Shown here piece after piece: positions 22,288-60,566 of a DNA stretch of 64,000 bases. The translations under genes were made by a program, and so were the position numbers. Position 1 is the stretch's first letter. Each line of letters opens with the position of its first letter. Origin of the DNA: Candidatus Paceibacter sp. (GTDB lineage: Bacteria > Patescibacteriota > Patescibacteriia > Magasanikbacterales > UBA922). The notes under the pieces are model-generated. The model did no database searches. It was not told where the DNA came from and worked only from the letters and a program-made list of their open reading frames with translations. The DNA is taken from contig DYFM01000001.1 in assembly GCA_020725175.1 (NCBI GenBank), positions 1,504 to 65,503 on the forward strand. Direction: 5' to 3'.

Positions 22288-22464
22288 AGGACGGATTACG
22301 GATAATACGGAGGTACGTACGGATACTAAATTTGCAGAGTAAGCTCGTAAGCAGAATAGGCAGAGTAGGCACATACAGTACAATAGCGTATTCTACGTAC
22401 TCTGCTTTCTTGCATATTCTACTCAACACCACATCCGTACCTCCGTATTATTGTAATCCGTAAA
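22288..22464. repeat. ~175 bp dyad-symmetric intergenic repeat element, copy 1 (scpA/scpB spacer)
   Basis: Terminal inverted repeats ggattacggataatacggaggtacg / cgtacctccgtattattgtaatccgtaa; internal hairpin gcagagtaagctcgtaagcagaatag...tattct..tactctgc; near-identical copy at 60321-60494. Confidence 0.8.
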
Positions 22465-26994: not shown

Positions 26995-27150
26995 TATTGA
27001 ATCTTACAGATAATACGGAGATACGGATGTTGGTTTTCAGATATAGTGAAATGATGAAATAAAAGCTTTTCATTATGATCAATTTACTTCGCTAATTCAA
27101 TGTATAGCAAGATAGATATCTGTAACTCCGTGTTATCCGTAATCTGTACT
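26995..27150. repeat. Diverged copy of the dyad-symmetric intergenic repeat family (parA/parB spacer)
   Basis: acagataatacggagatacggatg ... ctgtaactccgtgttatccgtaatctgta terminal inverted repeats related to copies at 22288 and 60321; central palindrome gaaaagcttttc. Confidence 0.6.
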
Positions 27151-35702: not shown

Positions 35703-35705
35703 AGT

Positions 35706-35770
35706 TTTTGGCAGTGTAGGCAGAATACGCAAAGTAAGTTTGTAAGCACCTTACGCGTATTCTGCCTACC
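35706..35770. repeat. Perfect 15-bp-arm hairpin (gtaggcagaatacgc...gcgtattctgcctac) related to the internal hairpin of the 175-bp repeat family
   Basis: Shares agtaagNtNgtaagca and gcagaata with copies at 22288/60321. Confidence 0.6.
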
Positions 35771-43411: not shown

Positions 43412-45613
43412 ATGAAGCTCACCACCAAAGTCAGTCAACTAAATCGCGTGGGGGAAGTGCTTGCTCGGCGATTGAAGCATCTCGGAATTGAAACCGTAGA
43501 GGATTTGTTATTTTACTATCCATTTCGATATGAAGATTTCAGTCAAAGCGAACAGATAAAAAAATTGAAAGAAGGAGAACAGGTGACGGTACGAGGAAAG
43601 GTGGAACTTATCGCCAATAAACGGAGTCCTCGAAAAGGAAAAATTATTACCGAAGCGGTGGTGGCTGATGACGCGGATCGGTTGCGGGTGGTGTGGTTTG
43701 GTCAGCCGTTTATCGCAAAAACAATTCATGTTGGAGATACGGTTTTTTTGTCCGGAAAAGTCTCTCGAGATATGTTTGGGCTGGTCATGAAATCACCGAG
43801 TTATGAAAAAGAAAAGAAACTTGCAAAACAGCACCTTGAAGATATTTCTTCACAGCAAAAAGATGGCGATATTGAACAGACGCACACTGGAAGGTTGGTG
43901 CCGATCTATTCTTTGACTGCCGGGATCACTCAAAAACAGCTACGTTTTTTGATTAGTCAGGTAATTTCACTCTCGTCAACACTGGAAGAATGGTTGCCGG
44001 TAGAAATATTGGAAGGGGCGGACTTGATACCAATTCAGGACGCGGTGAAAGCCATTCATTTTCCCGAAGATCGGACCGATTTGCAGCAGGCAAAAAAACG
44101 GTTGAAATTTGATGAACTATTTATTCTTCAGCTTCGGGCTGAAATGATCCGTCAGTCGATCAAACGCGAAGAAGCGCCGAAACTGGTATTTCAAGAAACA
44201 TTGATCAAAGAATTTGTTCAAAGACTACCGTTTACGTTGACCAATGCACAAAAGATTGCCACCTGGGAAATTTTACAAGATATTCAAAAATCGGAACCGA
44301 TGAACCGTTTGCTCGAAGGTGATGTGGGAAGCGGAAAAACGGTGGTGGCAGCGATGTGTCTGTATAACGCGGTGTTAAACGGGTATCAGGGAGTTTTGAT
44401 GGCACCAACGGAGATACTCGCGAAACAGCATTTTGAATCTATTGTTAGTTTGTTGGGAGAAGCATGTGCTGTCGCGTTGTTGACTGGTTCTGAAACTGGA
44501 AATTGTCAGCCCAAGGCTGATCCGCCTCGGGCGGAGAAATTGGAAATTGGGGAAAAAACAAAAAAGGGGAAAAGAGCGGAATTGTTGAAGTTTGTAAAAA
44601 ACGGAACAGCGAACATTATTGTTGGTACCCATGCGTTGTTGGTGGATGAGGTGAAGTTTAAACAGTTGGGATTGGTGATTGTGGATGAGCAGCATCGTTT
44701 TGGAGTAGAACAGCGAAAAACAATCCGCGAGAAGTCCGGGGTTGGTGGAATGACACCGCATTTCTTGAGCATGACGGCGACTCCAATTCCGCGTTCATTT
44801 GCGCTGACGCTCTACGGCGATTTAGATTTATCAATTATCAATCAAATGCCGGCCAATCGAAAGCCTATTCAGACACGACTCGTTGATCCGCATCAACGGG
44901 AGAAAGCCTATGGATTTATTCGATCTCAAGTGAAAGAAGGGAGGCAGGTATTTGTGATTTGTCCGTTGATTAGCAAGGAACAAGGAACAAGGAACAAGGA
45001 ACAAGATGTTGAGCCATCGCGTTTACTATCTTTGCAGGATGAGAGAAAGACCGTGATGGAGGAATATGAAAAATTGAAAAATCATGTTTTTCCGGATTTG
45101 CGTGTGGGGTATTTGCACGGGAAAATGAAATCGGCGGAGAAAGATGTGATGATGAAGCAGTTTGCGGCCGGAGAGATTGATATTTTGGTGTCGACGTCGG
45201 TGGTTGAGGTTGGGGTAAATATTCCAAATGCCTCGGTCATGATGATTGAGGGGGCGGAGCGTTTTGGACTCGCGCAGTTGCATCAGTTTCGGGGGCGAGT
45301 AGGGCGAAGCGAGTATCAGTCGTATTGCTTTTTGTTTACCGAAAGTCAGTCGGACAGCTCGCGAGGGAGACTGGAATTTTTTGAAAAAACTCTTGATGGT
45401 TTCAAACTGGCTGAATATGATCTCAATACGCGAGGTCCCGGAGAAGTCTATGGTACGTCCCAAAGTGGCCTCATGAATTTTCGGTTGGCAAGTATGAAGG
45501 ATACTGCTATAATCAAACTGGCCCGAGATACGGCCCGGGGAATTGATTTTGAAAAATACCCGTTACTTAAGGAAAAAGTAAAAGAATGGGAGGGGAGAGT
45601 ACATTTGGAATGA
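43412..45613 (+). CDS. recG: ATP-dependent DNA helicase RecG, with two in-frame insertions (palindromic element; heptamer repeat)
   Basis: Wedge/OB N-terminus, helicase motifs GDVGSGKT (I), DEQHRFG (II), TATPIPRS, QFRGRVGR (VI). Confidence 0.9.
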   Translation: MKLTTKVSQLNRVGEVLARRLKHLGIETVEDLLFYYPFRYEDFSQSEQIKKLKEGEQVTVRGKVELIANKRSPRKGKIITEAVVADDADRLRVVWFGQPFIAKTIHVGDTVFLSGKVSRDMFGLVMKSPSYEKEKKLAKQHLEDISSQQKDGDIEQTHTGRLVPIYSLTAGITQKQLRFLISQVISLSSTLEEWLPVEILEGADLIPIQDAVKAIHFPEDRTDLQQAKKRLKFDELFILQLRAEMIRQSIKREEAPKLVFQETLIKEFVQRLPFTLTNAQKIATWEILQDIQKSEPMNRLLEGDVGSGKTVVAAMCLYNAVLNGYQGVLMAPTEILAKQHFESIVSLLGEACAVALLTGSETGNCQPKADPPRAEKLEIGEKTKKGKRAELLKFVKNGTANIIVGTHALLVDEVKFKQLGLVIVDEQHRFGVEQRKTIREKSGVGGMTPHFLSMTATPIPRSFALTLYGDLDLSIINQMPANRKPIQTRLVDPHQREKAYGFIRSQVKEGRQVFVICPLISKEQGTRNKEQDVEPSRLLSLQDERKTVMEEYEKLKNHVFPDLRVGYLHGKMKSAEKDVMMKQFAAGEIDILVSTSVVEVGVNIPNASVMMIEGAERFGLAQLHQFRGRVGRSEYQSYCFLFTESQSDSSRGRLEFFEKTLDGFKLAEYDLNTRGPGEVYGTSQSGLMNFRLASMKDTAIIKLARDTARGIDFEKYPLLKEKVKEWEGRVHLE
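44510..44536. mobile_element. GC-rich palindromic element in frame inside recG (cccaaggctgatccgcctcgggcggag); reverse complement matches the 40824 element
   Basis: rc ctccgcccgaggcggatcagccttggg vs 40821 tccgcccgaggcggacccgccttgggcggg; encodes ...CQPKADPPRAEK... in an insertion absent from typical RecG. Confidence 0.65.
44974..45005 (+). repeat. (CAAGGAA)x4 heptanucleotide tandem repeat inside recG coding sequence
   Basis: caaggaacaaggaacaaggaacaaggaacaag encoding KEQGTRNKEQ in a loop insertion. Confidence 0.9.
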
Positions 45614-45620
45614 TGTTATT

Positions 45621-48149
45621 ATGTCACCAGGAGATACGGAATATCGTATACATTCGTTTATTCCTGATACGAATGTTTCAAAGGAACAAGAAAACAGAGA
45701 AAGAAGAGTGTCACGATCTTTTGTGACACAATCTTTGCGTTCTGAGGTAATAGAGCCGCACCTTAAGAAGTTATTGGAAACTCATCCGGAGCAAGATGTG
45801 ATTGATGTGTTGGTTGATACTGATTTGACTTCAGTTATGCTGATAGAAAAAGGCTTTGAATCTGTTAATGCCGGGCAGGTGATGCCAACAGGAGGAGAGG
45901 CGGATCAGGGGGAGGATTTTGAGACAGCCGCTTTACGACGGAAGTTTGAAGAAACGCATTTACGGCCGGTAGAAGGAAAGAGACTTGGGAAAATGACTTA
46001 TACATTGAAACATCCATCAAAAGGTGATCGAGATTTACGTGTGCAGTATTTTTCTTTTCATATTTTACCAACCGATGTTTCGTATGCCCATGACCCAGAA
46101 GGAGATAAGATCGGCGGAGTAGTACGACTTACTATTGAGCAGGCTATAGAGCTACTTCAAAAGAATAAACTTTCTTCAAAACAAATATTTTTACTAGAAG
46201 CAGAAACTGGATACGAATCTGCCGAAGAGGTAGCATTGTTGGATAGTTTGCGAACAGTTCGTGAGGATGAAAATGATATAGTAAAGAATGTTAAGCCACA
46301 TGAAGTGGAGCAAATTCAAATTTCTTTCTTACTAGATATTGTTAAAAAAGAAACTGAAAAAAAGAAATCATTGTTACGACAAATTTTGGCAATAAATTCT
46401 TCAAAATTTAGTACTGATGAGATAGAAGAATTGAATACGAAGATAGATCAAAGCAAAGATCAGGTGCAAACACGTAAATGCCTGCGAGAAATACTGGAAA
46501 GCCTGCAGAAAAAGGGATTGTCAAATGAAGATGTTTTTAATACTTATATAGCTGCTATTGATCTGAGTAACTTTGAAGAAGAAGTTGCAGACAAACACGC
46601 TGGTCTTTCAAAGATAGAAGCCCTGTCCCGGTTTATGTTTACCCTGTTAGAAACACGGTATGATTTTGATACTTATATTTCTATCGCAGAAAAGAATCCT
46701 TTTTTAAAGGAATTTATCGGAAAGTTGAGAAATTTTGCTGCCGCAGTAGAAAAGACTGCAAAAAGAAATGGATTAACAGGTAAAAGCCTTCCTCTCTCAG
46801 CTCAACTTGCTTATATTCATGAGTTAGGCGATGGACAGTTAGAAGTACTTTTTATGGACCACTTTTTTTTGACAGATCATGAGCGCGAGGGTGTAGAGCA
46901 ACTGCCTCGAAAAGTGAAAGCGTCTCAGAAACAGGCTCATGATTTTTTTCGGCAGGTAAAGTTGGAGGTGAACAAATTTAATCAAAGTATTGTGCAGAGT
47001 ATACGTCCAGAGTCTGGAGTGACGCACAATGTAAAATTGTTGGAACAGATGCATGAGGTGGAAGAAGCATCGGTAGCAAATCTTATTCGATTAAGTTTTT
47101 CAAATACCTTACCACCAGACGTGTTAAGGAGGTTTGTTCCTAAAGGCAAAAGAAAGACCAATGAAGAAAGAGAAAAAATTAAACATTTAATAAAACGTTA
47201 TAAATTTGAATGTCGAAGAAAACTGATGGACATGTATTTATTTTATGAGCCAAATGAATTTTTTCGGCAGGTACAAACTGAGAATCGTCCGGTGCAAAAC
47301 CAGGTTTGGAATAAAATTTCCAGTTTTCCAATATACCAAATATTTGTGCGACTTGAAAAAGATGGTACTGATCTGCGAGCAGTAGAGGTACTAGATTCTG
47401 ATGTAAATCCTGAGGAAAGCAAGAATATTTTAGTGGTTGATGTACGCGCATACAAAACTGATCGAGGCTTTTATTATGTTCACCAAAATGGACTTCCGAA
47501 AGAAATTGAATCATTTATGAGAAAGCTAATGGTAAGAGGGTATGATAATTATGAACAGGTTGAAGATATTCATCGTCGGGCAATTGTGCTTTTTGGCGGT
47601 GAGAATGAAGAAACGAGGCAGCGTTTGCATGAAAGAGAAAACGTCGTCTTTTCAGTGAGCGAATTAGATCCGCAAATTGTAAAAGACAAGACAGCCTCGG
47701 AACAAGAGGTGGAAGACGTGGCTGCAGTTTTTGATATTATTCGTGCTTTGAAAAAAATTCCGGGCGTAAAAATAAAAAACTATCGACCTACCAACAAGCC
47801 TGGAGAAACATATAAAAGTAAAAGTGTCGGTGGTGGTGGAAAAGTAGTGTTTGCGAAGTTGTATATTGAGTACACACCTCCTGGCGAAGTAAAGACATAT
47901 CATGAAGAGGTGATGCTTTTTTCTCCCACACCAAAAGAGGGGGGGTTTTCGGAGCAATCAGCCTATTTTTGGTTTGAATTCAAAAAAGCCGATGACAAAA
48001 AGTACGCTTTTTCTCGACTTCTTTCCACTAAGTCACTGCGCTCATTTATTGACCTTCGATATCCGCCACAGATATATGGAAAGCCGGTTCGGCAAGTTGT
48101 TGGAAGATTTATAGAAACACAGAAGCAAAAGAGAAAGGGAAAAGATTAA
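45621..48149 (+). CDS. Large hypothetical protein (842 aa), likely co-transcribed with recG
   Basis: Starts 8 nt after the recG stop; long uninterrupted ORF with coiled-coil-like segments; no motif I can assign. Confidence 0.5.
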   Translation: MSPGDTEYRIHSFIPDTNVSKEQENRERRVSRSFVTQSLRSEVIEPHLKKLLETHPEQDVIDVLVDTDLTSVMLIEKGFESVNAGQVMPTGGEADQGEDFETAALRRKFEETHLRPVEGKRLGKMTYTLKHPSKGDRDLRVQYFSFHILPTDVSYAHDPEGDKIGGVVRLTIEQAIELLQKNKLSSKQIFLLEAETGYESAEEVALLDSLRTVREDENDIVKNVKPHEVEQIQISFLLDIVKKETEKKKSLLRQILAINSSKFSTDEIEELNTKIDQSKDQVQTRKCLREILESLQKKGLSNEDVFNTYIAAIDLSNFEEEVADKHAGLSKIEALSRFMFTLLETRYDFDTYISIAEKNPFLKEFIGKLRNFAAAVEKTAKRNGLTGKSLPLSAQLAYIHELGDGQLEVLFMDHFFLTDHEREGVEQLPRKVKASQKQAHDFFRQVKLEVNKFNQSIVQSIRPESGVTHNVKLLEQMHEVEEASVANLIRLSFSNTLPPDVLRRFVPKGKRKTNEEREKIKHLIKRYKFECRRKLMDMYLFYEPNEFFRQVQTENRPVQNQVWNKISSFPIYQIFVRLEKDGTDLRAVEVLDSDVNPEESKNILVVDVRAYKTDRGFYYVHQNGLPKEIESFMRKLMVRGYDNYEQVEDIHRRAIVLFGGENEETRQRLHERENVVFSVSELDPQIVKDKTASEQEVEDVAAVFDIIRALKKIPGVKIKNYRPTNKPGETYKSKSVGGGGKVVFAKLYIEYTPPGEVKTYHEEVMLFSPTPKEGGFSEQSAYFWFEFKKADDKKYAFSRLLSTKSLRSFIDLRYPPQIYGKPVRQVVGRFIETQKQKRKGKD

Positions 48150-49787: not shown

Positions 49788-51134
49788 TCACGAATGCTTT
49801 ATCAACTCCTCAATATTCTTCACAGAAAAAATTTTCAACTGAGTCGTTGGTAATTTCATTTGCGCTTTTGACGCCATAATGACTCGTTTCATACCCAACC
49901 CTTCCGCTTCTTTCAACCTCTTTTCCGTAAACGTCACGCTTCGTACCTCTCCGCCAAGACCCACTTCACCAAAGACCAGTAAATCTTTACCTAGAGCTTT
50001 GTCTTTATAACTTGAGGCAATTGCAAGGCACACCGCCAGATCAACCGCGGGTTCATTGGCACGAATTCCGCCGGCGACATTTAGATGAATATCATATTGT
50101 GCCAAATTGAGACCAGCTCGTTTTTGAAGGACAGCGGTCAGCACATGAAGACGATTCAGGTCAAACCCACTTGATTTTCGAATAGGGAATCCGAAAGCTG
50201 TTTTACTGACGAGCGCCTGGACTTCGACGAGCATGGGTCGAGTACCTTCCATAAGACAAGTAATAATAGTGCCTGGTGTTGATTCACTTCCTTCATCAAG
50301 GAAACTCGCTGAGGGATTTTTTACTTCTTTTAGGCCGGTTTCCTGCATTTCAAAAATACCTACTTCATCGGTTGAGCCAAAACGATTTTTGACAGTGCGA
50401 AGAATGCGGTAATTATTGTGTTTCCGGCCTTCAAGGTAGAGGACGGTATCCACCAAATGTTCCAGTGTTTTTGGTCCGGCAACGGTCCCTTCTTTTGTCA
50501 CATGGCCAATAATGATTACTGCAGTATTGGTTGATTTTGCTACATCTAGGAGTGTTGCGGTACATGCTCGTACTTGTGTCATACTGCCGGTTTCACCGGT
50601 CGCCTCGTCAGTTGAGATGGTTTGAACAGAATCTACGATGACAAGGGCAGGGGAGAGTTGTCGGATGGTGGCCGAGATGGCATCGACATTTGTTTCATTG
50701 GCCAGACGAAGTGTTGGCGCGGTAATTCCAAGTCGATCAGCGCGAAGCTTGATTTGCTCGATTGATTCTTCTCCGGAAACATAGAGGGTATTAGGAATGA
50801 CTGTAGCGAGTTGAATGGAGAGGGTTGATTTACCGATACCTGGTTCGCCACCAAGAAGTATCAGGCTCCCGGGCACAATCCCTCCACCGAGAACTCGATC
50901 CAATTCAGTAATGTTTGTTTTCGACCGTTGTACTTCTTTTCCTTTCAACTCACTAAATGCCACTGTTTTTACTGGTGCTGCTTTTGGTACCTCGATCTTT
51001 TGTTTACTGACCACTGTCCCTTGTTCACTGATACTACCCCATTTTCCACATTCCAAACAACGACCGGCCCATTTTTTGAATTGGGCGTCGCAGTTGGTGC
51101 AGGTGAAGACGAGATTGAGAGTGGGTTTGGACAT
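49788..51134 (-). CDS. radA: DNA repair protein RadA (Sms)
   Basis: N-terminal CTNCDAQFKKWAGRCLECGKWG zinc finger, RecA-like LLGGEPGIGKSTL, KNRFG motif, Lon-protease-like C-terminus. Confidence 0.9.
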   Translation of the reverse strand: MSKPTLNLVFTCTNCDAQFKKWAGRCLECGKWGSISEQGTVVSKQKIEVPKAAPVKTVAFSELKGKEVQRSKTNITELDRVLGGGIVPGSLILLGGEPGIGKSTLSIQLATVIPNTLYVSGEESIEQIKLRADRLGITAPTLRLANETNVDAISATIRQLSPALVIVDSVQTISTDEATGETGSMTQVRACTATLLDVAKSTNTAVIIIGHVTKEGTVAGPKTLEHLVDTVLYLEGRKHNNYRILRTVKNRFGSTDEVGIFEMQETGLKEVKNPSASFLDEGSESTPGTIITCLMEGTRPMLVEVQALVSKTAFGFPIRKSSGFDLNRLHVLTAVLQKRAGLNLAQYDIHLNVAGGIRANEPAVDLAVCLAIASSYKDKALGKDLLVFGEVGLGGEVRSVTFTEKRLKEAEGLGMKRVIMASKAQMKLPTTQLKIFSVKNIEELIKHS

Positions 51135-51190: not shown

Positions 51191-53107
51191 TTATAATTTA
51201 CTCCCAATTGGACATTGGGTAATATTCTTTGGTCCTGCAAATTCAGTCACTCCGAGGGATCGAATTTTCACAACAATCTTTTGAACATATCCTTTTGATG
51301 CACCGTTGAATATTTTCTTTCCAGCATAGGTGCTTCCTTCTGGCCAAAGACCATCAGGCCACTGGTTGGTATTACAGCTAAAACGATTGATTGCCGCTCC
51401 AAGTGCACCTGGTCCGCTACTGTGCCCAAAGTATAACATGAATACCTTATCATCTAGTGAGGAATTAGGACATTTTTTATTAATTTTCTGAAAGCTAGCT
51501 TGTGTAACAAGAATGCCGTAAGCGCTATTGACCTCCGGGTTTTTTAACCCGTCACGAGTGGAGCAGTGTTGGGCAAGATCGACTTTTGCAAGCACGGGTC
51601 GACATTGCCATCCACCTGTTTTTTTACCGATTTTTGGAAATCCCCACATTGCTTGAAACAAACCGGTTGCGCTAGACTTCGGATTTTCTGCATTTGGGTT
51701 GAGGGCTGATTCGTGGTGTGCCATAGCTTTCAGTAATTGCCAATTTATTCCAATACAGGCTGCAAATTTTTGGAATAATTGATCAAATTCTGTTGTTCCA
51801 AAAGGTTTTCCTCCTCCAGTATACGCACTCGCATCAAATTCACCTTTTTCCTCAGCATAAAAATCCATATTGTCGAGAGACTTTCCTTGTATATATTGAA
51901 TTTTGAGATTGCGAAATTGAACCAAATTGGGATTGAGTGTGTAGAGTATGGTATAGGACAAAATGGCAAAAAATAATCCGATAATAGCGCCTGCAATTTT
52001 TTTCTTGGCCGAGCTAATACTGTCACTACTACTCCCAGATATCATCCATTGAAAGCCACCAAAAATAATCATGATAATTGATATGATTCCAGCAGCAGCA
52101 ATGGCGTATCGGTAGAGCGCGAGTATGTAGTCACCGATAAAGGGGAGATAAGCATAGAATCCTCCGTCTACGTCACCTTCTTCAGGTATATAAACACCAC
52201 CAAATTGTAAACCAGGAACAATTATCTGGGGCTGTGGACATTTGATCTGTGGTTTTGTTTCAGAGGTATATTCCTGTGTATCAAATACCGCATCAATCAT
52301 ACTGCCGGTTTTTGGGTCTTGATCCGAGCAAGGGAAATAACCGGTGGGGATGGGGGTAACGGTACTGGCAGGTGACTGTTGACCGAGCGTTGAGGCGTCA
52401 AATCCAGCGGAATCTGGTCCTGGGGTATATCCACCATAGGCTTGTTGCATAAGAAGCGCAAACATAACCTCTTGCCCTGTTTTGTTTAGGTGAAGATGGT
52501 CGCCAGAATCAAACTGACTATCTATGGTATCATCGTTATCTTTATCAACGTTACTATAGACATCAATGTAACTATCAATACCATAAGGTTTTCCGGCGAG
52601 CCAGGCATTATTGGCTTTGATGTTGTCTCCCCATGTTTGTGTCCAGCTATTATATCCCTTAAATGGTTGTGCCCCCATGATAATTATTTTGCTTCCTTCC
52701 GATTTTGCAGACTGTATAATCGTTGTAAGATTTTTTTGTGTATTTTGGAGACCAGTTGTGTTATTAAGCCCGTTTAGGCCGCCGTAAAGTATAATTTCAC
52801 TGAATCCTTTTCCTTTTACTTTAGTATTGTACTGATCCAGAAAAAATGATGAGCTGGATCCTGATTTTGCAAAACATTCAAACGCTTTGTCCGGAAGTGC
52901 TTTTTTGAGTTTTTCCACAAAACCTCCTGAACTACATCCACCAACAAAACTTGATGACCCGATGACGGCGGTTTTGGTGGTGGCACGAACAGTATTTGGG
53001 AAATACGCAATGAATAATAGAAAAAGAAATATATATATAACTTTGTTTTTTTTTCCACGCTGAATAGATCTAATAAATTGGAATAGCTCTTCTAAATTTT
53101 TTTTCAT
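51191..53107 (-). CDS. Multidomain envelope protein: SGNH/GDSL-like hydrolase + two-helix membrane hairpin domain + soluble lytic transglycosylase (SLT) domain
   Basis: VIGSSSF (GDS block) and DSGDHLHLN (DxxH); hairpin domain LALYRYAIAAAGIISIIMIIFGGFQWM...LSYTILYTLNPNLVQFRNLK; SLT motif MAHHESALNPNAENPKSSATGLFQAM. Confidence 0.6.
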   Translation of the reverse strand: MKKNLEELFQFIRSIQRGKKNKVIYIFLFLLFIAYFPNTVRATTKTAVIGSSSFVGGCSSGGFVEKLKKALPDKAFECFAKSGSSSSFFLDQYNTKVKGKGFSEIILYGGLNGLNNTTGLQNTQKNLTTIIQSAKSEGSKIIIMGAQPFKGYNSWTQTWGDNIKANNAWLAGKPYGIDSYIDVYSNVDKDNDDTIDSQFDSGDHLHLNKTGQEVMFALLMQQAYGGYTPGPDSAGFDASTLGQQSPASTVTPIPTGYFPCSDQDPKTGSMIDAVFDTQEYTSETKPQIKCPQPQIIVPGLQFGGVYIPEEGDVDGGFYAYLPFIGDYILALYRYAIAAAGIISIIMIIFGGFQWMISGSSSDSISSAKKKIAGAIIGLFFAILSYTILYTLNPNLVQFRNLKIQYIQGKSLDNMDFYAEEKGEFDASAYTGGGKPFGTTEFDQLFQKFAACIGINWQLLKAMAHHESALNPNAENPKSSATGLFQAMWGFPKIGKKTGGWQCRPVLAKVDLAQHCSTRDGLKNPEVNSAYGILVTQASFQKINKKCPNSSLDDKVFMLYFGHSSGPGALGAAINRFSCNTNQWPDGLWPEGSTYAGKKIFNGASKGYVQKIVVKIRSLGVTEFAGPKNITQCPIGSKL

Positions 53108-53113
53108 AGAAAA

Positions 53114-54403
53114 TTATTCAAGACTCGGATCCCAACTACACTGACCTTTAGGATTATGTTGTGAAAGGTTAAAAGAAGTACCCATATATTTTCCGAGTTT
53201 GTTGAGTTTAAAATTTGGTGGATCATGGTGAGTGCCAAGTTCACAATGTCCTCGTACTGTAGTATCATTAATTGGAAAATTATATTTTTTACTCAATGCA
53301 ACAATGAGTTTTGCAATATTTTGGTACTGTTCTTCCGTATAAAAATAACCTTCAGAGTTTTTTTGATAATTTATATCAATCCCAATCGAGATTTTATTTT
53401 CACTACAACAGTGATTCATAACATGTAATTCATCTGCTAGTTGATATACTTCACCACTCGGAACAGCCGCATAATGTGAGCCAATTGGCACCTGATTGAC
53501 TGTTAATGGAAGACGATAAATTTTTTTAGTTGCCTTATCTTTTTTTGCTTTACCTAACTTGTAGTCATTGGCCCACATACTAATCATTCCTGATACGTTT
53601 TCTTTTGGGAATCCGAGGTGTAATATGACCATTTTTACATCAGAAGGAGGTCTTTTCGCATTTTTTGTTCTGGATGAAATATTGCAATCAAGTTGTCCTA
53701 GAAATTTTTTATTCGTATCAAATCCGGTTAAATTGCTAGGTGAGGAGGGTACAGGTACAGAACAATTTCTTGGGGGTTGAATGGTTCCATCGGGTCCTAT
53801 TATATTTGGTCCTGAATCAGAAGCAACATCATTAACATGACTATATGCTTCATCTGGTATTGGTTCAGCCTGCACATACAACACTTTCAAATTACGAAAC
53901 TTTACCAAATTTGGATTAATGGTAAAAAGAAAAAGATATGATCCAACAGCCAATAAAATACCGATGAGGGCGTGTTCGATCCGGGTTTTGGCTTTTGTGA
54001 TATTGTCGCTATTACCGGCACTTGTTACCCATTGAAAACCAGCTATTATAATCATAATAACTGACACAATCCCAATCGCCGCAATCACAAATCGGTAGAT
54101 GGCCGCGATATATTCACCGGCATAGGGAATTGAAATGTACTTGTTTCCTTCATCATCTTCGGTTGTTAAGTTTTCAACATTTGCTTCGGTAAATTTTTCG
54201 AGTCCTGGCAGCTTGATACGAAGCTGTGGCTGTTGTAGCATTGCATTGAGTTCACTTTCGGTTAATGGTTCGGAACCGGTAAACGCGTCACCTATCGCGT
54301 TCCCTGGGCCGTATTGGGCAAGTGCTGGGGAAGAATACAAAAAACAGATCGTGATGAGCGTCAAGACAATTACTCGAAAATGTTTATGAAAGAAAGGCAA
54401 CAT
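53114..54403 (-). CDS. Signal peptide + same two-helix membrane hairpin domain + N-acetylmuramoyl-L-alanine amidase (Amidase_2/PGRP-like) domain
   Basis: AAIYRFVIAAIGIVSVIMIIIAGFQWV...GSYLFLFTINPNLVKFRNLK is a paralog of the hairpin in 51191-53107; C-terminus ...ILHLGFP...ISIGIDIN...TVRGHCEL... amidase_2-like. Confidence 0.55.
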   Translation of the reverse strand: MLPFFHKHFRVIVLTLITICFLYSSPALAQYGPGNAIGDAFTGSEPLTESELNAMLQQPQLRIKLPGLEKFTEANVENLTTEDDEGNKYISIPYAGEYIAAIYRFVIAAIGIVSVIMIIIAGFQWVTSAGNSDNITKAKTRIEHALIGILLAVGSYLFLFTINPNLVKFRNLKVLYVQAEPIPDEAYSHVNDVASDSGPNIIGPDGTIQPPRNCSVPVPSSPSNLTGFDTNKKFLGQLDCNISSRTKNAKRPPSDVKMVILHLGFPKENVSGMISMWANDYKLGKAKKDKATKKIYRLPLTVNQVPIGSHYAAVPSGEVYQLADELHVMNHCCSENKISIGIDINYQKNSEGYFYTEEQYQNIAKLIVALSKKYNFPINDTTVRGHCELGTHHDPPNFKLNKLGKYMGTSFNLSQHNPKGQCSWDPSLE

Positions 54404-54406
54404 AGG

Positions 54407-55051
54407 TTATAACCCAAGAACAGTTTTCCAGCCGGCAAGTGACTGCGGAGGAGTGATTTGTTTGTTGTCTATAAAAATTGCCGGTACCGCTTGAACGTTG
54501 ACAGACATGGCAAGTGCTTCGGTATTTACAATATGTGTTTCTGTAGCGACATTATTGAGACACGTGGTTAGAAGTTCTTGATCCAGTTCTATTTGCGTGG
54601 CAATTTCTTGAAGCATTGTATCGGACAAGGATTCGTTGTTCGCGTACGCAAAATCCTTGAAGGTGACAAATTTTCCTTGGAGATTGGCACAGTAGGCGTA
54701 TTGGTGAGCAAGGCGGGCATTATGTGGAAAACGTGCCACTGGAAGTCCTTTCCAGATTACCTTGATTTTACCAGGATATTCTCGTTCTATTTCTGATAAG
54801 AAATAATCTTGTTGTTTACATCCTTCACAACTAAAATCTTCAAACACAACAATTGTTTTAGCGGCTGCTTTGTTTCCGATAATCGGATCGCCTGGAAGAA
54901 TCGGGAGTAGTGTTGGGGTTTCTGAAGTTTGTTCTTCTTCTGGTAGTTTAGGGAAGAGGGGACGATATTGTACCACTTCAATAAAAAGTGCCAGTCCCGC
55001 AATAAGAATGGCCGGAATAAAGATGGTGAGGATGTGTTTTGTGTTCAGCAT
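54407..55051 (-). CDS. Membrane-anchored DsbA-like thiol:disulfide oxidoreductase
   Basis: N-terminal TM, thioredoxin-fold with CEGC active site (FSCEGCKQQ). Confidence 0.65.
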   Translation of the reverse strand: MLNTKHILTIFIPAILIAGLALFIEVVQYRPLFPKLPEEEQTSETPTLLPILPGDPIIGNKAAAKTIVVFEDFSCEGCKQQDYFLSEIEREYPGKIKVIWKGLPVARFPHNARLAHQYAYCANLQGKFVTFKDFAYANNESLSDTMLQEIATQIELDQELLTTCLNNVATETHIVNTEALAMSVNVQAVPAIFIDNKQITPPQSLAGWKTVLGL

Positions 55052-55071
55052 ACACGTACAATAGTTGAGCT

Positions 55072-56319
55072 TTAGAGCGGTATAGAAAAAATACCCGGTA
55101 CATTGACATCGGTGTAAAATAGAGTTTTACCGTCATCACTTAGAAACATGGATTGAACGGTCGGCGGAGTCTCTACCGGGATTTCGGTTTTTAGTCCGGT
55201 CTGGGTATCAATTTTCATAATTGAATCTTGGGTCGTGTTTCCGAGTCCTGGTTGAAATCCCGCACCAGCCGGAAGGTTTTGCGGCACACCACAGTACACA
55301 TATCGATCATCAGTTCCAAATCCGCATTTATTGGCCCAGGTGTTTACTTCAAGCAGTTTTCTACCGGTACCAATTTGATCTCCAGAAGCATTGACGACCC
55401 AGAGAGTTGGGTTGAAATTTGTTTGGTTACTAAAAGCACTGTAGAGAAGTTTTTCTCCGGTTGGTGACCATGCGGTAGTCAGGCCTCGTCCTTCAACGAT
55501 AGTTGATTTGAAGTTTTCTTTGTTTTGTCCAATAAAAAGGAGTTCTTGTCGATATGCGCCCAGTGGTTCACCAGTGAGAGCCATGCCAACTATTTGTTTA
55601 TTTGGTGACCAGTCAATGATTACTTGATCAGCATTTTCTCCAAGCGGTTCAATCAGAGAAATGTTGTTTCCGGTTGGATCTGAGGTGATGAGCCAGCGAT
55701 TTTCCGGAGAAAATCCCAGGCTTTTGGCAGCGATTTTGTCCGATTGTGGAGAGAAAGAAAAGTTTTCCCAGTGTTTTGGTAGGGTAACTTGTTCTTTGGA
55801 GTCAAAATTGTAGTAAATGTTGGAGCCATCCGGATACTCTATGATTGTTTCATTTTTTTCTGGTGACCATACGACATTTGCTACATTAAAAAATGTTTGT
55901 TCGCTTAAGAGTTCGAGACTTCCGTCGGGTAAAAGACGATAAAATTTTCCATCTTGTTTATTGTAAAATTTGGCTGCACCCAGAGTGTCTTTGGTGGCAG
56001 CGAGTACCGGTACATCAATGAGCTGTACGCTGGCTGGAAGGACGAAGCTGGGTTCAGATGAACCAGGTTGTTGGGTTGTTGGGGGGGTGGTTCCGGGAGT
56101 TTGACCGGGAGTTGGGAGAGAACCTGGTTGGTCAGTGACACTGCCGCGTGTGCCACCTTGACCTGCTTCAGGAAATCCGTCAGTGGGAAGTGGTTGCCCA
56201 TCTGGACCAACCGGTCGAGGAGTGGGCTTGGGGGCAAAAAATACCATCCAAAGAAGAATACCGAGAATGATGGTGACAATGAGGAACCCGATGGCGAAAA
56301 GGAGGCGACGTTTGTCCAT
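55072..56319 (-). CDS. Membrane-anchored TolB-like beta-propeller protein with Pro/Gly/Thr-rich linker
   Basis: N-terminal TM; PD40-like repeats (VVWSPEKNETIIEYPDGS, IDWSPNKQIVGMAL, TAWSPTGEKLLYSA, LSDDGKTLFYTD). Confidence 0.55.
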   Translation of the reverse strand: MDKRRLLFAIGFLIVTIILGILLWMVFFAPKPTPRPVGPDGQPLPTDGFPEAGQGGTRGSVTDQPGSLPTPGQTPGTTPPTTQQPGSSEPSFVLPASVQLIDVPVLAATKDTLGAAKFYNKQDGKFYRLLPDGSLELLSEQTFFNVANVVWSPEKNETIIEYPDGSNIYYNFDSKEQVTLPKHWENFSFSPQSDKIAAKSLGFSPENRWLITSDPTGNNISLIEPLGENADQVIIDWSPNKQIVGMALTGEPLGAYRQELLFIGQNKENFKSTIVEGRGLTTAWSPTGEKLLYSAFSNQTNFNPTLWVVNASGDQIGTGRKLLEVNTWANKCGFGTDDRYVYCGVPQNLPAGAGFQPGLGNTTQDSIMKIDTQTGLKTEIPVETPPTVQSMFLSDDGKTLFYTDVNVPGIFSIPL

Positions 56320-56340
56320 ACAAGAAAATGTAATTAATGG

Positions 56341-57363
56341 TTATGCTGAACGAAGTTGGTTTAATCGTTGTGATATTCCCGCTATTTTTTGTTGAGTTTG
56401 TCCTAATTGAGCGGTAAGTTGTGGGATGCCATACTCTTGTTGGAGCTGTGCTATTCTAGCGGACAGCTCGTCTTGTAATCTCGTAATTTTGGATTTCAGT
56501 CGAGCTTTTTGAAAACGAAGTCTTCCGGCCATGGCAAATAAAAATCCGGCGCCTCCGGTAAGAATGAGAATGATAATAGGGATAATGGTAATGATTGAGA
56601 AAATTACTATTATCATGATTCCATAGAAAGCAAGATTAACTAATTTCAGACTAAACTTTAGTTGGGAAATTTGTTTGCGTAGACCCGACACTCTTTCGTC
56701 TTTATCGAGTCGATTTTTTGCCTGATTAAGTTGTTGAATTGTTTGTCGTTCTTCTTGCTGGAGTGCCGCGGCTTGCGTTTGAAGGGTTTGGACTTGTTGT
56801 TGGATGCTTTCTGAATCAGGAGGTGATTGGTCTGGTTGTGTTTCCGGTGGTTGTGTTTCATCAATATCGTTATTTGGTTGTTTGGTAGTATCTTCAGGTA
56901 GTTCGTTTTCCGGAGGAGATTGATCAAACGGTTGATATGGAGGTTGTTCTGTTGGTTCTCCTTGTTCCCCTTGTTGTTCCTCAGTGGTAGCCGATTTGTT
57001 TTGAGGAGTCGGTTCGTTTTTCGGTTGGGTTGATGATGGATTTTTTTCCTCTAGAGCATCATTGATTCTGTTTCGGGTGGACGGTTGCTCTGCAGCCGGG
57101 TTGTCAAACGCTTGACTCGGTTGAGACAGTGTTTCGTCGAGAGCGGACGTATCGGCGAAACTATCGAGGACTTCTTTGTTGGTAAAATTATCAACAGCAT
57201 TTTGAGCTGCGTCAGTAACGGCATCTTCCATGGTTGCTGCCGCTTCAGCGGCTGCCTGCTGTAATTCTTCTTCATTACTTACCGATCCAGGCCCTCCGGC
57301 AAAATTGAGAAACGCAGCCATGAGCGCGCCGGTTAATTTGCTGTGAAGTCCTGGTATGTTCAT
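56341..57363 (-). CDS. Acidic Pro/Gln-rich protein with one TM helix and C-terminal coiled coil
   Basis: Low-complexity acidic region, TM IMIIVIFSIITIIPIIILILTGGAGFLF, then heptad-like Q/L-rich tail; ATG 57363 preferred over TTG 57369. Confidence 0.4.
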   Translation of the reverse strand: MNIPGLHSKLTGALMAAFLNFAGGPGSVSNEEELQQAAAEAAATMEDAVTDAAQNAVDNFTNKEVLDSFADTSALDETLSQPSQAFDNPAAEQPSTRNRINDALEEKNPSSTQPKNEPTPQNKSATTEEQQGEQGEPTEQPPYQPFDQSPPENELPEDTTKQPNNDIDETQPPETQPDQSPPDSESIQQQVQTLQTQAAALQQEERQTIQQLNQAKNRLDKDERVSGLRKQISQLKFSLKLVNLAFYGIMIIVIFSIITIIPIIILILTGGAGFLFAMAGRLRFQKARLKSKITRLQDELSARIAQLQQEYGIPQLTAQLGQTQQKIAGISQRLNQLRSA

Positions 57364-57372
57364 ACGCAAACA

Positions 57373-57726
57373 TTAGCGCGATTGAGAAAAAGCAACTACG
57401 AGTCTGGCGCATTCAGTATAGTACATTTTCGTTTCTTTCTCAATATCCTTGGCAGTCAGTTTTCCTTGTTGTTTGAGGAGTGTCAGTGAAATGACACATA
57501 GTCGGGCTCGCAGATCAACCATTCTGTTGAGACGTCGTTCGGTGTCTGAGGTTTGTTGTTTGTCGTGTGCTTGCAAAAGTTGTGTTTTTTGAAATTGTAT
57601 TTCTTCAAGAATATTTTTTTGCTCCTCGTGTAACGTAAAACCGGCCTTGGAAAAGCGGCGGCCTTTTTGGGTGCGGAGTGCTGCTGCCCATTGTTGTTCT
57701 TGATCTGGGAGAGGTGAGACAGGCAT
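57373..57726 (-). CDS. Hypothetical helical protein
   Basis: 117-aa ORF between the clpC-like gene and the coiled-coil protein; no motif. Confidence 0.4.
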   Translation of the reverse strand: MPVSPLPDQEQQWAAALRTQKGRRFSKAGFTLHEEQKNILEEIQFQKTQLLQAHDKQQTSDTERRLNRMVDLRARLCVISLTLLKQQGKLTAKDIEKETKMYYTECARLVVAFSQSR

Positions 57727-57733
57727 GTGTAGT

Positions 57734-60283
57734 TTAGATAAGTCGATAACCTTGGTTGCTCTTTTTGAGCGTATAACGTTTTTTGCGTTGTTTTTTATCG
57801 AGTACTGTCATGACTTGTTCGTGAATGACGCGCTCTAAGTGGCGGGTAACATAGCGTGCGCCTGAATCGGAGGAGAAACATTCTTTGGTGAGGCTAGGAA
57901 GAATAGTCGAATCGAGTTGAATCACTATTTGTTGGACGTTTCGTACTTGTGCAAAAATCTCTTCTGTGTGTTTTTTTACAATAGTGGAAATGTGTTCTTC
58001 TGAAAGTGGGGTAAACAGAGAAATTTGATCTAAACGACTCATCAGCGCATTGCCCAATTCTTCTTTGATACGAGCGGTAACGGCCGTTTGTATTCGTGAA
58101 AGTCCGATCGGGTCATTGGTTTGTTTTTCAAATCCGATACCGGTAGTTTGAAAAAGTTCCGCTCCGATGTTGGCGGTCAGAATAATGATCGAATTTTTAA
58201 AAGAAATTTTTTTGCCGGTGCTGTCGGTGAGCTCGCCCTCGTCAAGGATCTGGAGAAGAAGTTTCAAGACATCTCTGTGGGCCTTGTCAATTTCATCATA
58301 CAAGACAACGGCATACGGTTTTTTTTGAACTTCATCGAGAAATCTATTCCGTTCTTTATACCCAACATACCCGGCCGGGGAACCGAGCAGTTTTGAAACT
58401 CCGTGCGATTCAGAAAACTCACTCATGTCGAGTTTTATCAGCGCGTTTGGTGACTGATACAGTTCTTTGGCAAGCTGTTTAGCCAGTTCGGTTTTTCCTA
58501 CGCCACTTGGTCCAACAAAAAGAAAAGACGCACGTGGTTTTCGTTCTTCTATTCCCCGTAATTCTCTTTGTTTAAGTGTTCGCACCAGATCGTGAATGAC
58601 CGGTTCTTGACCAATGATATGGGTGCTGAGACGTGTTCCGAGTTCATTAAGAGATGTCCATTCGTCTGCAATCAAAAGTGATGAATCGATGCCAAGTCGA
58701 TCAGCTAATACATTGGTAACATCTTCAGCTGTGACCGGCTCTGGTTTGGTGGAAGGTTTCTTTTTGTATTTCTTTTCAATCGTGTGCAGTTCTTTTTCTA
58801 GTGCAGCCAGTTCGTTTTTTATTTCCATCGCGCCGTCAAACTGTTCGGAAATTACCGCTTCTTCTTTTTTCTTTTTTAGTTCTTGCAATCGATCACGAAG
58901 CGTACGTAGTTTTGCGACATACGGCGGGGTAGGGCGTTTGGATCGAACACTGGCCGCGGCTTCGTCGATGAGGTCTATGGCTTTATCCGGAAAAAAATTA
59001 TCATGTACATAGCGACCGCTGAGAGAAACTGCCGCTCGAATTGCATCATCTTGAATAAGTGTTCCGTGATATTCGTCAAAATTTTCTTTCACTCCTTCTA
59101 AAATTTGAATGGTTTCATTGGCACTTGGTTCTTCTACGTGAATGGAAAGAAATCGTCGGGACAGTGCTGGATCATTGGAAATGTATTTTTTGTATTCATC
59201 AAATGTGGTTGCCCCGATACAGCGCAGTTGTCCTCGGGCCAAGGCTGGTTTCAACATGTTGGCTGCGTCCATAGTCCCTTGGTTTGATCCGGCGCCGATA
59301 ATGTTGTGAATTTCATCTATAAACAAGATGCAGTCTTCCCGATTACTGAGTTCGTCCATAATGTGTTTTAGTCTGCCTTCAAACTCTCCACGGTAAATCG
59401 TACCAGCTAAAAGAAGGGTAAGGTCAAGGGAAAGAATTTTTTTGTCTTTCAAAATGTCCGGTACATCGCCACTGGCTATACGGCGAGCCAATCCTTCGAC
59501 AATGGCGGTTTTCCCTACGCCTGGTTCTCCAACTAGAACCGGATTGTTTTTATGTCGACGTGCCAAGATGTGGATGAGACGGCTTATTTCTCTCTCTCGT
59601 CCAATTACCGGATCAATTTTCCTCTGTAACTGCTTCGCTGTCAGATCGATGGTAAACATCTCCAGGGCAGTTTGCTGTTTTGGTGCATGTTTCTTTTTTC
59701 CGGAGTGATTGGGGGTGATGCGGGGAGTGGATTGCGGATGGTTGGTTGGCGGCTGGTCAATCATTTGTTCTATTTGATCCATTGCATCAATCACGTCTTC
59801 TACGGCTGGGAATTTACTCACGCTGGCAAAGACGGTGTGAATTTGATCTTCAAGGTCGTCAAATGATATTTTTTGTTGTTTTAGAATCGCGTCTACCAAA
59901 GGATCTTCACAAATAATGAGCCCATGGAGAACGTGTTCGGTGCCAATGTAGTTGTGCTCATGTTCATAGGCAGAAAGCATGGCTTTTTCCAACACTTCTT
60001 TGGACTTGTGATTTAATTCTGGTAAGAGATTTGCTATCGGGTTGGTGGAGGTGGTGGCTGGTACTTTTACTCGTGAACGCAAGGAATCAGCGACAATTTG
60101 GCTGTTAAATTTGGATTTTTTCAAAATTTCCGCCGCCACTGATCCTGGTTCTTCGGCCAGGGCAATCAAGAGGTGGATTGGCAAGACCTCTTGTTCATTC
60201 AAAGATGCCGCTAAAGAAATTGCCCGCGCAATACTATTTTTGAGGTGGGTAGAGAGATTGTCAAGAAATTGTTTAGAATTCAT
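57734..60283 (-). CDS. AAA+ chaperone of the ClpA/ClpB/ClpC family (two NBDs, Clp_N domain, short middle domain; ClpC-like)
   Basis: [21 protein letters not shown] (Walker A, NBD1), ILFIDEIH (Walker B), [19 protein letters not shown] (NBD2), ...[11 protein letters not shown]...; N-terminal Clp_N repeats. Confidence 0.85.
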
Positions 60284-60320
60284 AGGGAATAGTTGTTTTT
60301 ACTAATAGGTACTATGTATC

Positions 60321-60494
60321 TTACGGATTACGGATAATACGGAGGTACGGATAATTGTTTTGCAGAGTAAGCTAGTAAGCAGAATAGGCAGAGTAAGAGT
60401 ACAAAACACCATAGCTTATTCTGCTTACTCTGCGTACTTGCATATTCTGCCCGGTTCAACATCTGTATCTCCGTATTATCCGTAATCCGTAAAA
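60321..60494. repeat. ~175 bp dyad-symmetric intergenic repeat element, copy 2 (clpC-like/pgm divergent spacer)
   Basis: ttacggattacggataatacggaggtacgg ... gcagagtaagctagtaagcagaataggcagagta ... tattctgcttactctgc ... ctccgtattatccgtaatccgtaaa; matches 22288-22464. Confidence 0.8.
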
Positions 60495-60566
60495 CAAAAT
60501 TTGCAAAAAATTCCTCCTTCACGTTATACTAATCATACATGATAATTCCTTCTAAATCAACTACAT

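Follow-up and report, generated by a model that had tools for sequence, protein, structure and literature searches.

The 64-kb stretch of DNA analyzed here, called the window below, comes from a 196-kb metagenome contig (JGI 3300029893) of an uncultured, ultrasmall member of Candidatus Magasanikbacteria (class ABY1 of the Candidate Phyla Radiation (CPR), or Patescibacteria) and carries, at positions 51191-60283 of its minus strand, a run of genes for envelope proteins that starts with clpC and leads into radA. A reading to which the sequences give about an even chance is that this is the clpC operon of the Magasanikbacteria, which has either acquired or kept an accessory envelope module, the module serving a pilus, DNA uptake or contact with a host. 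The eight genes from clpC to radA are probably co-transcribed. Those at the two ends are housekeeping genes, for the ClpC unfoldase and the RadA recombination helicase; between them lie two gene sets, a lineage-specific pair coupled to clpC and an older, portable set encoding an extracytoplasmic core. The module appears, from its neighborhood in relatives, to be tied to type IV pili (T4P) and to the transformation genes radA, comFC, recG and dprA. It is more likely to be a pilus or DNA-uptake accessory set than a new ClpC-driven secretion machine, because relatives hold the core beside T4P genes and without clpC. We infer these functional links, that to the pilus included, from gene content, domains, conservation, coupling and outgroup contexts, all of which can be observed.

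The region had been taken, from its letters and ORF list alone, for an envelope operon of nine genes. Its coordinates and strand agree with the list of open reading frames (ORFs) and with the gene caller of the source contig; the count does not, as both give seven non-overlapping minus-strand ORFs within 51191-60283, and radA prolongs the run beyond 51191 as an eighth gene. From clpC to radA the genes are:

57734-60283, minus strand: clpC, 849 amino acids (aa) (Pfam, NCBIfam, PDB alignment)
57373-57726, minus strand: basic helical protein, 117 aa (no family match)
56341-57369, minus strand: acidic coiled-coil membrane protein, 342 aa from a TTG start or 326 aa from the first ATG (composition)
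55072-56319, minus strand: membrane-tethered seven-bladed beta-propeller, 415 aa (AlphaFold2 (AF2) model, fold searches)
54407-55051, minus strand: membrane-tethered DsbA-like oxidoreductase, 214 aa (Thioredoxin_4, DSBA)
53114-54403, minus strand: protein with signal peptide, hairpin and Amidase_2 domain, 429 aa (Pfam, hairpin hidden Markov model (HMM))
51191-53107, minus strand: protein with transmembrane (TM) anchor, SGNH domain, hairpin and SLT domain, 638 aa (Pfam, hairpin HMM)
49788-51134, minus strand: radA/sms, 448 aa (TIGR00416 at 3e-163, above its cutoff)

The intergenic gaps, in the same order, are 7, 3 (51 from the ATG start), 21, 20, 3, 6 and 56 nt. Profile searches with Pfam and NCBIfam bear out the domain calls of the sequence-only reading in all essentials, 'TolB-like' and 'single-pass' excepted. 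The clpC-like AAA+ protein is a Clp/Hsp100 class-I unfoldase; the small protein is indeed helical (117 aa, pI 9.6); the TM-anchored DsbA-like oxidoreductase has its Thioredoxin_4 domain, CEGC motif and TM segment; Pfam recovers both hairpin fusions, and with them three wall-cleaving activities (SGNH, SLT and Amidase_2) beside a disulfide catalyst. Most of the products are envelope-located, and profile scans and tblastn found no ATPase or secretin of a type II or type IV secretion system (T2SS, T4SS) or of T4P in the window or in any Magasanikbacteria locus. The tight co-directional packing is real but ordinary here: the median same-strand gap in the window is 46 nt, and a run of 28 co-directional genes occurs elsewhere in it. 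As such packing is common in this genome, it is conservation, not packing, that exceeds chance.

Conservation and gene neighborhoods

Relatives were gathered by a scan with an alignment of the propeller, one genome per species, which gave 412; the figures for Magasanikbacteria refer to the best 80 loci of the 412, assigned to that type by record title or locus layout, many titles being uninformative or evidently mislabelled. ORFs in the relatives' loci were called by a longest-ATG rule, so that individual starts and gaps are approximate. About 80 species of Magasanikbacteria retain the series clpC, small helical protein, coiled-coil protein, propeller, dsbA, hairpin gene or genes, radA, and by tblastn the order is almost everywhere pgm(-), clpC, a variable 0.5-2.5 kb, propeller, dsbA, hairpin(s), radA, recG(-). 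The species-level genomes contain ClpC in 55/55 cases, DsbA in 74/74, a hairpin protein in 67/68, RadA in 41/47, RecG in 43/47 and PGM in 39/46. The median junction measures 4 nt from clpC to the next ORF, 1 nt from the small gene to the coiled-coil gene, 22 nt from there to the propeller, 4 nt from the propeller to dsbA (adjacent in 74/74, with a 4-nt overlap in 21 genomes), 2 nt from dsbA to the first hairpin gene and about 10 nt from the last hairpin gene to radA (56 genomes). Conservation of the neighborhood in related genomes had been proposed as a check, and what it turned up is a conserved and tightly coupled operon: the constant order together with the short, often overlapping junctions shows that the operon is real and that it includes radA. 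It does not prove that the seven genes cooperate, because some 25 kb of unrelated housekeeping flanks are equally conserved, with pheT-pheS-rseP, lemA, an M48 peptidase gene and pgm upstream and guaB/recG downstream. In the window itself, pgm lies divergently upstream of clpC, with a palindromic repeat between the two, and radA is followed by guaB on the opposite strand; there is no disA there.

The linkage of clpC to radA predates the inserted genes and is an old arrangement shared with the Firmicutes. In Bacillus subtilis the two genes are linked in an operon (PMC10633939), and they share both operon and regulon according to a passage of PMC4786428 that cites Krueger 1997. That operon (ctsR-mcsA-mcsB-clpC-radA/sms-disA) resembles the one in the window in having clpC and radA on the same strand in one transcription unit, and its ClpC shares with the window's a short M-domain, a UVR motif and a ClpP loop. 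The window departs from it in having six envelope or unassigned genes between clpC and radA, and in having neither ctsR, mcsA, mcsB and a CtsR box nor disA at the locus.

The outgroup set consists of 80 metagenome loci (L096-L175) from a scan headed by the propeller of locus L089; their propellers are 38-49% identical to that of the window, with a pairwise median of 51%. ClpC lies upstream of the propeller in 1/31 of these loci. Outside the Magasanikbacteria the most persistent neighbor of the propeller is a T4P operon: pilM is the immediate upstream neighbor, on the opposite strand and thus head to head, in 45 of 52 loci (median spacing 154 nt), and 3' of pilM stand, by Pfam, an unassigned gene, pilO, pilB, often a receiver-domain gene and pilT, pilC, and one to three prepilin genes. 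The operon is complete in 18 of the 19 outgroup loci with enough sequence. Downstream, the propeller is followed by DsbA in 23/62 and by a ComFC-like protein in 21/62. Three loci (L116, L117 and L138) place the T4P genes on one side and propeller-DsbA-T4SS_pilin hairpin-RadA-MPG on the other; other loci have propeller-DsbA-RadA, then RecG. The portable core is propeller-(DsbA)-(hairpin)-RadA, and ClpC with its two small partners is a lineage-specific upstream neighbor, being nearly absent upstream of the propeller in the outgroup loci. The sequence-only reading had spoken of a pilus-like or attachment apparatus; the T4SS-pilin-like hairpin (below) and the outgroup propeller beside the T4P operon lend it indirect support.

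Some details of the outgroup loci may be added. The T4P operons at L116:639-9858 and L167:3030-9856 have a small ORF between pilO and pilB; FemAB often comes after the prepilins, and a stand-alone response-regulator receiver between pilB and pilT is unusual. In L089 (GCA_016204025.1), the most remote of the relatives with a clpC-type locus, where ClpC is 37%, the propeller 38% and RadA 48% identical to the window's, the order is lemA-M48-clpC-200-aa TM protein-propeller-three hairpin proteins-radA…recG, with pilM 5.7 kb upstream and no DsbA in the cluster; the three hairpin proteins (L089:8483-11830) have no recognizable enzyme domain and end in cysteine-rich tails with CC motifs.

Several identities for the locus as a whole were considered and rejected. 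It does not belong to a T4SS of the CPR or MPF-FATA kind: VirB4, PrgI/VirB3 and VirB6 are absent (Pfam; tblastn). A search for virB4 was made near radA and recG because T4SS loci of ABY1/Magasanikiibacteriota are reported, in 10.1101/2025.01.22.634366, to include comF, recG and radA; none was found within 10 kb in about 85 genomes, and tblastn with the VirB4, PrgI and TraC-like proteins of locus L091 gave no match in the window or in other Magasanikbacteria loci. Nor is the locus a T4P operon, as PilB, PilC, PilM, PilO and prepilins are absent from the window and from the Magasanikbacteria loci. A prophage lysis cassette is ruled out: the PHROGs matches are to catalytic domains only, and the locus is fixed in all species. 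An anti-phage defense system is ruled out likewise, the PADLOC matches being to the generic AAA+ fold only.

One might suppose instead that there is no common function to explain, and that unrelated housekeeping genes, for proteostasis, turnover of the cell's own wall, oxidative folding and DNA repair, are merely held together by slow rearrangement. Such a view accommodates the equally conserved flanks, the tight packing that is the norm of the genome and the breaking up of the cluster in outgroups; it has difficulty with the recurrent adjacency of propeller and DsbA (74/74 Magasanikbacteria and 23/62 outgroup loci), with the confinement of hairpin proteins to the slot after dsbA (110/110), with a propeller that keeps pilM head to head while the genes downstream of it change, and with the coherent pairing of cysteine-rich exported products and DsbA. 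We consider it unlikely.

Hairpins, wall enzymes and their exported partners

The two genes between dsbA and radA encode copies of one hairpin module, each joined to wall enzymes. In the 429-aa protein the hairpin is encoded at 53849-54271 and Amidase_2 (1.9e-12) at 53219-53641, and the mature part has 6 cysteines; in the 638-aa protein SGNH is encoded at 52469-52930, the hairpin at 51860-52240 and SLT at 51389-51778, with 10 cysteines. The translation of the latter shows the motifs GSSS, GGLNG and DHLH in the SGNH domain and HHES...GLFQ in the SLT domain, and it has weak PDB matches to TesA-type SGNH proteins and to EmtA. The hairpin HMM scores 5.4e-54 on the first protein and 1.3e-49 on the second; there are exactly two copies in the window. 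In layout, a signal peptide precedes a pair of hydrophobic helices, and a short basic loop connects the two; an AF2 model of the 429-aa protein's module, of moderate confidence (pLDDT 63) and built from a 3-sequence alignment, has two helices at module residues 51-82 and 88-122.

By sequence the hairpin appears to be a VirB2/T4SS-pilin-like module, related to pilins. Against T4SS_pilin (PF18895) the 429- and 638-aa proteins reach 21.0 and 25.5 bits, under the gathering cutoff of 26.6; a homologue in L116 reaches 31.7. The family is matched (E <= 0.001) by 58 of 83 Magasanikbacteria hairpin proteins and by 71 of 88 database representatives (best E 2.9e-71), one relative matches TrbC/VirB2 at 1.9e-28, and a stand-alone relative of 136 aa aligns with the module over signal peptide, PGL motif and both helices. 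VirB2-like pilins (PF18895, or TrbC, PF04956) have the same signal peptide, pair of hydrophobic helices and short basic loop, and relatives of the module adjoin virB4; the T4SS literature on Patescibacteria counts PF18895 proteins as VirB2-like and describes arrays of pilins, as well as wall hydrolases that are essential, beside virB4. SLT- and peptidase-type wall enzymes likewise occur in the VirB1-like hydrolases PrgK, TcpG and CwlT of monoderm and CPR T4SS. The window differs from these systems in that pilin-like module and hydrolase form a single chain of 429-638 aa, the module being flanked by globular domains on one side or on both, and in having no VirB4, VirB3 or VirB6 near its hairpin genes; with their size and enzyme domains, its hairpin proteins are not small stand-alone pilin subunits. 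Term searches of that literature found no description of such fusions.

What varies in the family is the enzyme. All 110 hairpin-module ORFs of Magasanikbacteria loci sit in the dsbA-to-radA slot, one to four per genome; the heads recognized on 83 of the proteins are SLT (13), VanY (13, plus M15 variants), SGNH (11), Amidase_2 (10) and C39_2 (9), together with M23, CHAP, GH18, a nuclease and a phosphoesterase, and the 88 database representatives carry the same repertoire. Between the amidase protein of the window and one with a C39 peptidase, the module itself keeps 54% identity. Sets of wall enzymes that act together are familiar: SpoIID and SpoIIP are a lytic transglycosylase and an amidase, and O-acetyl-peptidoglycan esterases of the Ape1 type act before lytic transglycosylases. 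The window is like them in encoding amidase, lytic transglycosylase and SGNH together, the last two fused, and unlike them in that the combination is not conserved, other species bearing other heads; the PDB matches are generic and point to no specific homology with SpoIID, SpoIIP or Ape1.

The family is large. An exhaustive HMMER search with the module gave 24,816 clusters (representatives at 50% identity) at E <= 0.001, 4,420 of them at E <= 1e-10, whereas a word-indexed search with the 141-aa module gave a single match; hydrophobic, fast-evolving modules are heavily under-sampled by searches of that kind. The best 150 clusters are mostly fusions of 300-900 aa, some with three to seven modules. 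At L091:1465-10463, beside the origin genes rnpA-yidC-dnaA-dnaN (oriC), the PrgI, TraC-like and VirB4 genes of a canonical CPR T4SS core stand directly 5' of three hairpin proteins (686, 370 and 891 aa) homologous to the window's module, and at L093:8649-12991 (Andersenbacteria) hairpin relatives occur in an array of up to seven small T4SS_pilin genes. L090:10001-17365 encodes giant multi-hairpin proteins; this locus and the representatives P0262, P0247, P0282 and P0295 provide CPR polypeptides with three to seven tandem pilin-like hairpins, up to 1057 aa long.

The AF2 model of the propeller (pLDDT 84) has a TM helix at 3-28, a disordered stalk rich in Pro, Thr and Gly at 35-91, and then seven blades; a cysteine pair, C332/C343, is invariant, and TM segment and KC...C pair are retained in 76/76 full-length outgroup homologues. 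A candidate-limited search found 1209 homologous clusters. 'TM-anchored' and 'propeller' therefore stand from the earlier description, and 'TolB-like' falls: PD40, at 18.1, stays below its cutoff of 20.9, and the top matches listed in the two fold searches do not include TolB. The protein shares with TolB of the Tol-Pal system an extracytoplasmic beta-propeller encoded in an envelope gene cluster; it differs in its seven generic blades and lack of a TolB N-domain, in an organism that is a monoderm CPR bacterium with no TolQRA or Pal genes at the locus. Another likeness is to the T4P proteins PilX2 (Nanosynbacter lyticus TM7x) and PilY1 (Pseudomonas), which also have a seven-bladed extracellular propeller behind a non-canonical hydrophobic N-terminus; the outgroup propeller gene, moreover, lies beside pilus assembly genes. 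In TM7x, itself a CPR bacterium, PilX2 is a propeller-bearing T4P protein with a non-canonical N-terminus that is needed for efficient host binding (PMC11623550). The window's propeller is set apart by its long Pro/Thr stalk and by the lack of pilus genes nearby in its genome, and its consensus has no pilin-type N-terminus (no G/F-x-x-x-E motif); PilX2 may be regarded as a functional analogue of it, rather than as a tested homologue.

The DsbA-like protein matches Thioredoxin_4 (2.5e-20) and DSBA (4.3e-9) and has a C75-E-G-C78 motif behind an N-terminal TM segment. Its position has a rationale, since the hairpin proteins are rich in cysteine, mostly in even number, and the cysteine pair of the propeller is invariant: cysteine makes up 2.4% of hairpin proteins against 0.2-0.7% in four cytoplasmic neighbors (RadA, with its zinc ribbon, has 1.6%), and 61/83 have an even count, some 4 standard deviations away from parity. 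In B. subtilis the oxidoreductase BdbD is required for the ComGC pseudopilin. DsbA/BdbD enzymes and the window's protein have in common the thioredoxin fold, CxxC motif, membrane tether and a gene beside those for exported proteins with cysteine pairs; for the window's protein the substrates are predicted, and in L089 it is missing from the cluster.

Put together, these parts suggest the following scenario. DsbA would oxidize the cysteine pairs of the exported propeller and hairpin proteins; the hairpin would fix the enzymes to the outer surface of the membrane, the domains on either side of the hairpin lying outside; the SGNH esterase would act ahead of the lytic transglycosylase and the amidase would strip peptides, opening the wall locally; the propeller would be a binding or scaffold partner; the set as a whole would work for an apparatus whose genes lie elsewhere, be it for pili, DNA uptake or host contact; and incoming DNA would be processed by RadA. 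The substrate could be the organism's own wall, because the window contains wall genes of its own (Mur ligase, S11 carboxypeptidase, LytR-CpsA-Psr).

The enzymes might instead be aimed at another cell. In that case the hairpin proteins would be an epibiont's polymorphic, peptidoglycan-degrading effectors against its host, the VirB2-like module being handled by, or built into, a T4SS pilus encoded elsewhere, with propeller and DsbA as helpers in maturation or targeting. A conserved module with swapped heads is the pattern of polymorphic effectors; hairpin relatives lie directly 3' of virB4 in L091; and in Southlakia a pilin array, as well as peptidase and lysozyme homologues beside virB4, are essential for epibiotic growth according to 10.1101/2025.01.22.634366. 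In the genome table of the T4SS study, moreover, the Magasanikbacteria entries carry a 'Yes' in the final column, which probably stands for a detected VirB4/T4SS. We regard this reading as doubtful all the same, with no virB4 within 10 kb in about 85 genomes, with proteins of 429-638 aa that, bearing a globular domain at either side of the hairpin, do not resemble polymerizing pilins, and with an organism that has wall genes of its own.

A bolder proposal combines these elements: the fusions would be true VirB2-type subunits, or cargo of a T4SS or T4P, that place swappable wall enzymes at the pilus to breach the wall of the host or of the cell itself; the propeller would be a widely conserved CPR pilus accessory that has so far gone unrecognized, and ClpC with its two private partners would pull hairpin proteins out of the membrane or recycle them. 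This is rather a long shot; if true, an ultrasmall epibiont would possess a contact apparatus of a new type, armed with enzymes.

ClpC and its two small partners

By its architecture the window's ClpC is a canonical member of the ClpP-docking ClpC subfamily. Pfam finds two Clp_N domains, AAA, AAA_lid_9, AAA_2 and ClpB_D2-small, an arrangement of two Clp_N repeats, D1, a short M-domain with a UVR motif (465-498), D2 and a GIGF ClpP-docking loop. In the PDB it best matches ClpC of B. subtilis and S. aureus and ClpC1 of M. tuberculosis, aligned in a single stretch (query 205-825), with GIGF against YVGF (the VGF loop) of B. subtilis ClpC; alignments to ClpB/Hsp104 break at the M-domain, the best stretch ending near residue 508. 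The ClpV, ClpB and ClpA equivalog scores are all below their NCBIfam cutoffs; a secretion-dedicated ClpV/TssH was rejected (TIGR03345 650.5 against a cutoff of 884.95), and the window has no type VI secretion genes. Neither ClpP nor an adaptor (MecA, McsB) turned up in the approximately 74 kb of genome scanned, and upstream of clpC there is no CtsR box above chance and no Rfam element. A homologue search with ClpC returned apparently only Magasanikbacteria (all lineage-named matches and both loci checked) and no outgroups.

The two proteins that follow ClpC are more elusive. The 117-aa protein is basic (pI 9.6) and helical, has no TM segment, and is lineage-specific, always directly 3' of clpC; it has zero matches in Pfam, NCBIfam, PHROG and PADLOC, its 37 positional homologues share weak motifs (E-x-x-W-A, L-R-A, Y-x-x-D-C), and against the PDB the family profile matches designed helical bundles only. 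The 342-aa protein has a cytoplasmic, acidic and disordered N-terminal half rich in D, E, P and Q (pI 4.05), a coiled coil, a hydrophobic stretch and a basic C-terminal coiled coil. It is acidic, coiled and membrane-bound, as first described, but hardly single-pass: with about 40 consecutive hydrophobic residues, the stretch is more likely to be two adjacent TM segments. Positional homologues of 212-771 aa share architecture only, and in them the double hydrophobic segment recurs; the family has no consistent Pfam match (weak DUF2207_C in 14/56). The pair may possibly provide a membrane-proximal partner or adaptor of ClpC.

The near-perfect palindrome of about 180 nt (60319-60497) in the divergent clpC-pgm intergenic region folds as RNA at -88 kcal/mol (z = -11.5) and has no Rfam match. 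Its 24-nt arm motif, TTACGGATTACGGATAATACGGAG, recurs between genes of the window at 22289-22451, 27126-27149 and 14910-14924, and the repeat is found solely in loci of the window's own organism. It looks like a species-specific, dispersed palindromic repeat of the REP (repetitive extragenic palindrome) or MITE (miniature inverted-repeat transposable element) kind.

That all seven products of 51191-60283 form one trans-envelope machine, in which ClpC is the motor, the coiled-coil protein supplies the scaffold, the propeller is the outer part and the hydrolases make the hole, is very improbable: every junction is tight, those from clpC through the 117-aa to the 342-aa gene included, ClpC is upstream in 55/55 Magasanikbacteria and a few outgroup loci, and the large cytoplasmic parts of the coiled-coil protein are within reach of an unfoldase, but ClpC is canonical, ClpP-docking and apparently the sole Clp ATPase seen at the locus, the propeller-DsbA-hairpin-RadA core does without it in 30/31 outgroup loci, its linkage to radA is older than the inserted genes, and no channel-forming component, secretin or secretion ATPase was found at the locus. 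The motor role assigned to ClpC in a dedicated machine is thus not supported by a canonical protein with a ClpP-docking GF loop that most outgroup loci lack, and its attraction is probably an effect of inherited gene order.

Objections, surroundings and significance

A number of points weigh against an accessory module for a pilus, DNA uptake or host contact. Synteny in the Magasanikbacteria spans unrelated genes, so that conservation there can be inheritance alone, and the pilus link comes entirely from neighborhoods in other lineages: the 64-kb window, the adjoining 10 kb and all Magasanikbacteria loci are devoid of T4P genes and of virB4. The fold of the propeller is generic, fold searches returning seven-bladed propellers and nothing more specific. 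Structure prediction of the hairpin, to which the sequence-only reading had looked, gave two long helices, but the fold search with that model (pLDDT 63), which is uninformative on a kinship to solved pilins, brought no significant match. The varying enzyme heads would fit host-directed effectors too. Profile searches allow no function to be assigned to the 117-aa and 342-aa proteins. Finally, ClpC is upstream of the propeller in L089 and in three further outgroup loci (L173, L170 and L157), and a real ClpC link is possible, the junction from clpC to the 117-aa gene being as tight as any.

The surroundings of the operon in the window include further genes of DNA metabolism:

34617-35732: dprA
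43412-45613: recG
30224-32515: topA

Together with radA, these all lie inside about 20 kb. Because they cluster so, and because ComFC and RadA are found 3' of the propeller in outgroups, the neighborhood has a transformation and recombination theme. Between recG and guaB, an 842-aa protein (45621-48149, plus strand) joins an N-terminal NUDIX domain to about 650 residues without family match and is kept in few relatives only (L009, L038 and L082, 27-29% identity). ORFs with neither NCBIfam nor Pfam match encode 588 aa (16956-18722, plus strand), 460 aa (41814-43196, minus strand) and 211 aa (41219-41854, minus strand), the last two a pair divergent from recG; a 974-aa ORF at L086:6042-8966 has no NCBIfam match and no recorded Pfam match.

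The accessory envelope module is partly new. Its individual domains, the pilin-like family and the pili and T4SS of CPR bacteria are already described; in the literature searched, no description was found of the fixed dsbA-to-radA slot of hairpin-hydrolase fusions, of the conserved head-to-head pair of pilM and propeller, or of the clpC-embedded arrangement. The CPR or Patescibacteria account for much of the diversity of bacteria, and their members lead a life attached to other cells; to our knowledge, no surface systems other than pili and T4SS have yet a demonstrated role in that way of life. A membrane-tethered propeller family, encoded head to head with pilM in several lineages, offers a candidate for a pilus accessory or an adhesin. 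Some 25,000 clusters of pilin-like hairpins with interchangeable peptidoglycan hydrolases suggest that the tethering or delivery of wall-cutting enzymes is modular in these organisms, at a locus recurrently linked to DsbA and to the transformation genes radA, comFC, recG and dprA.

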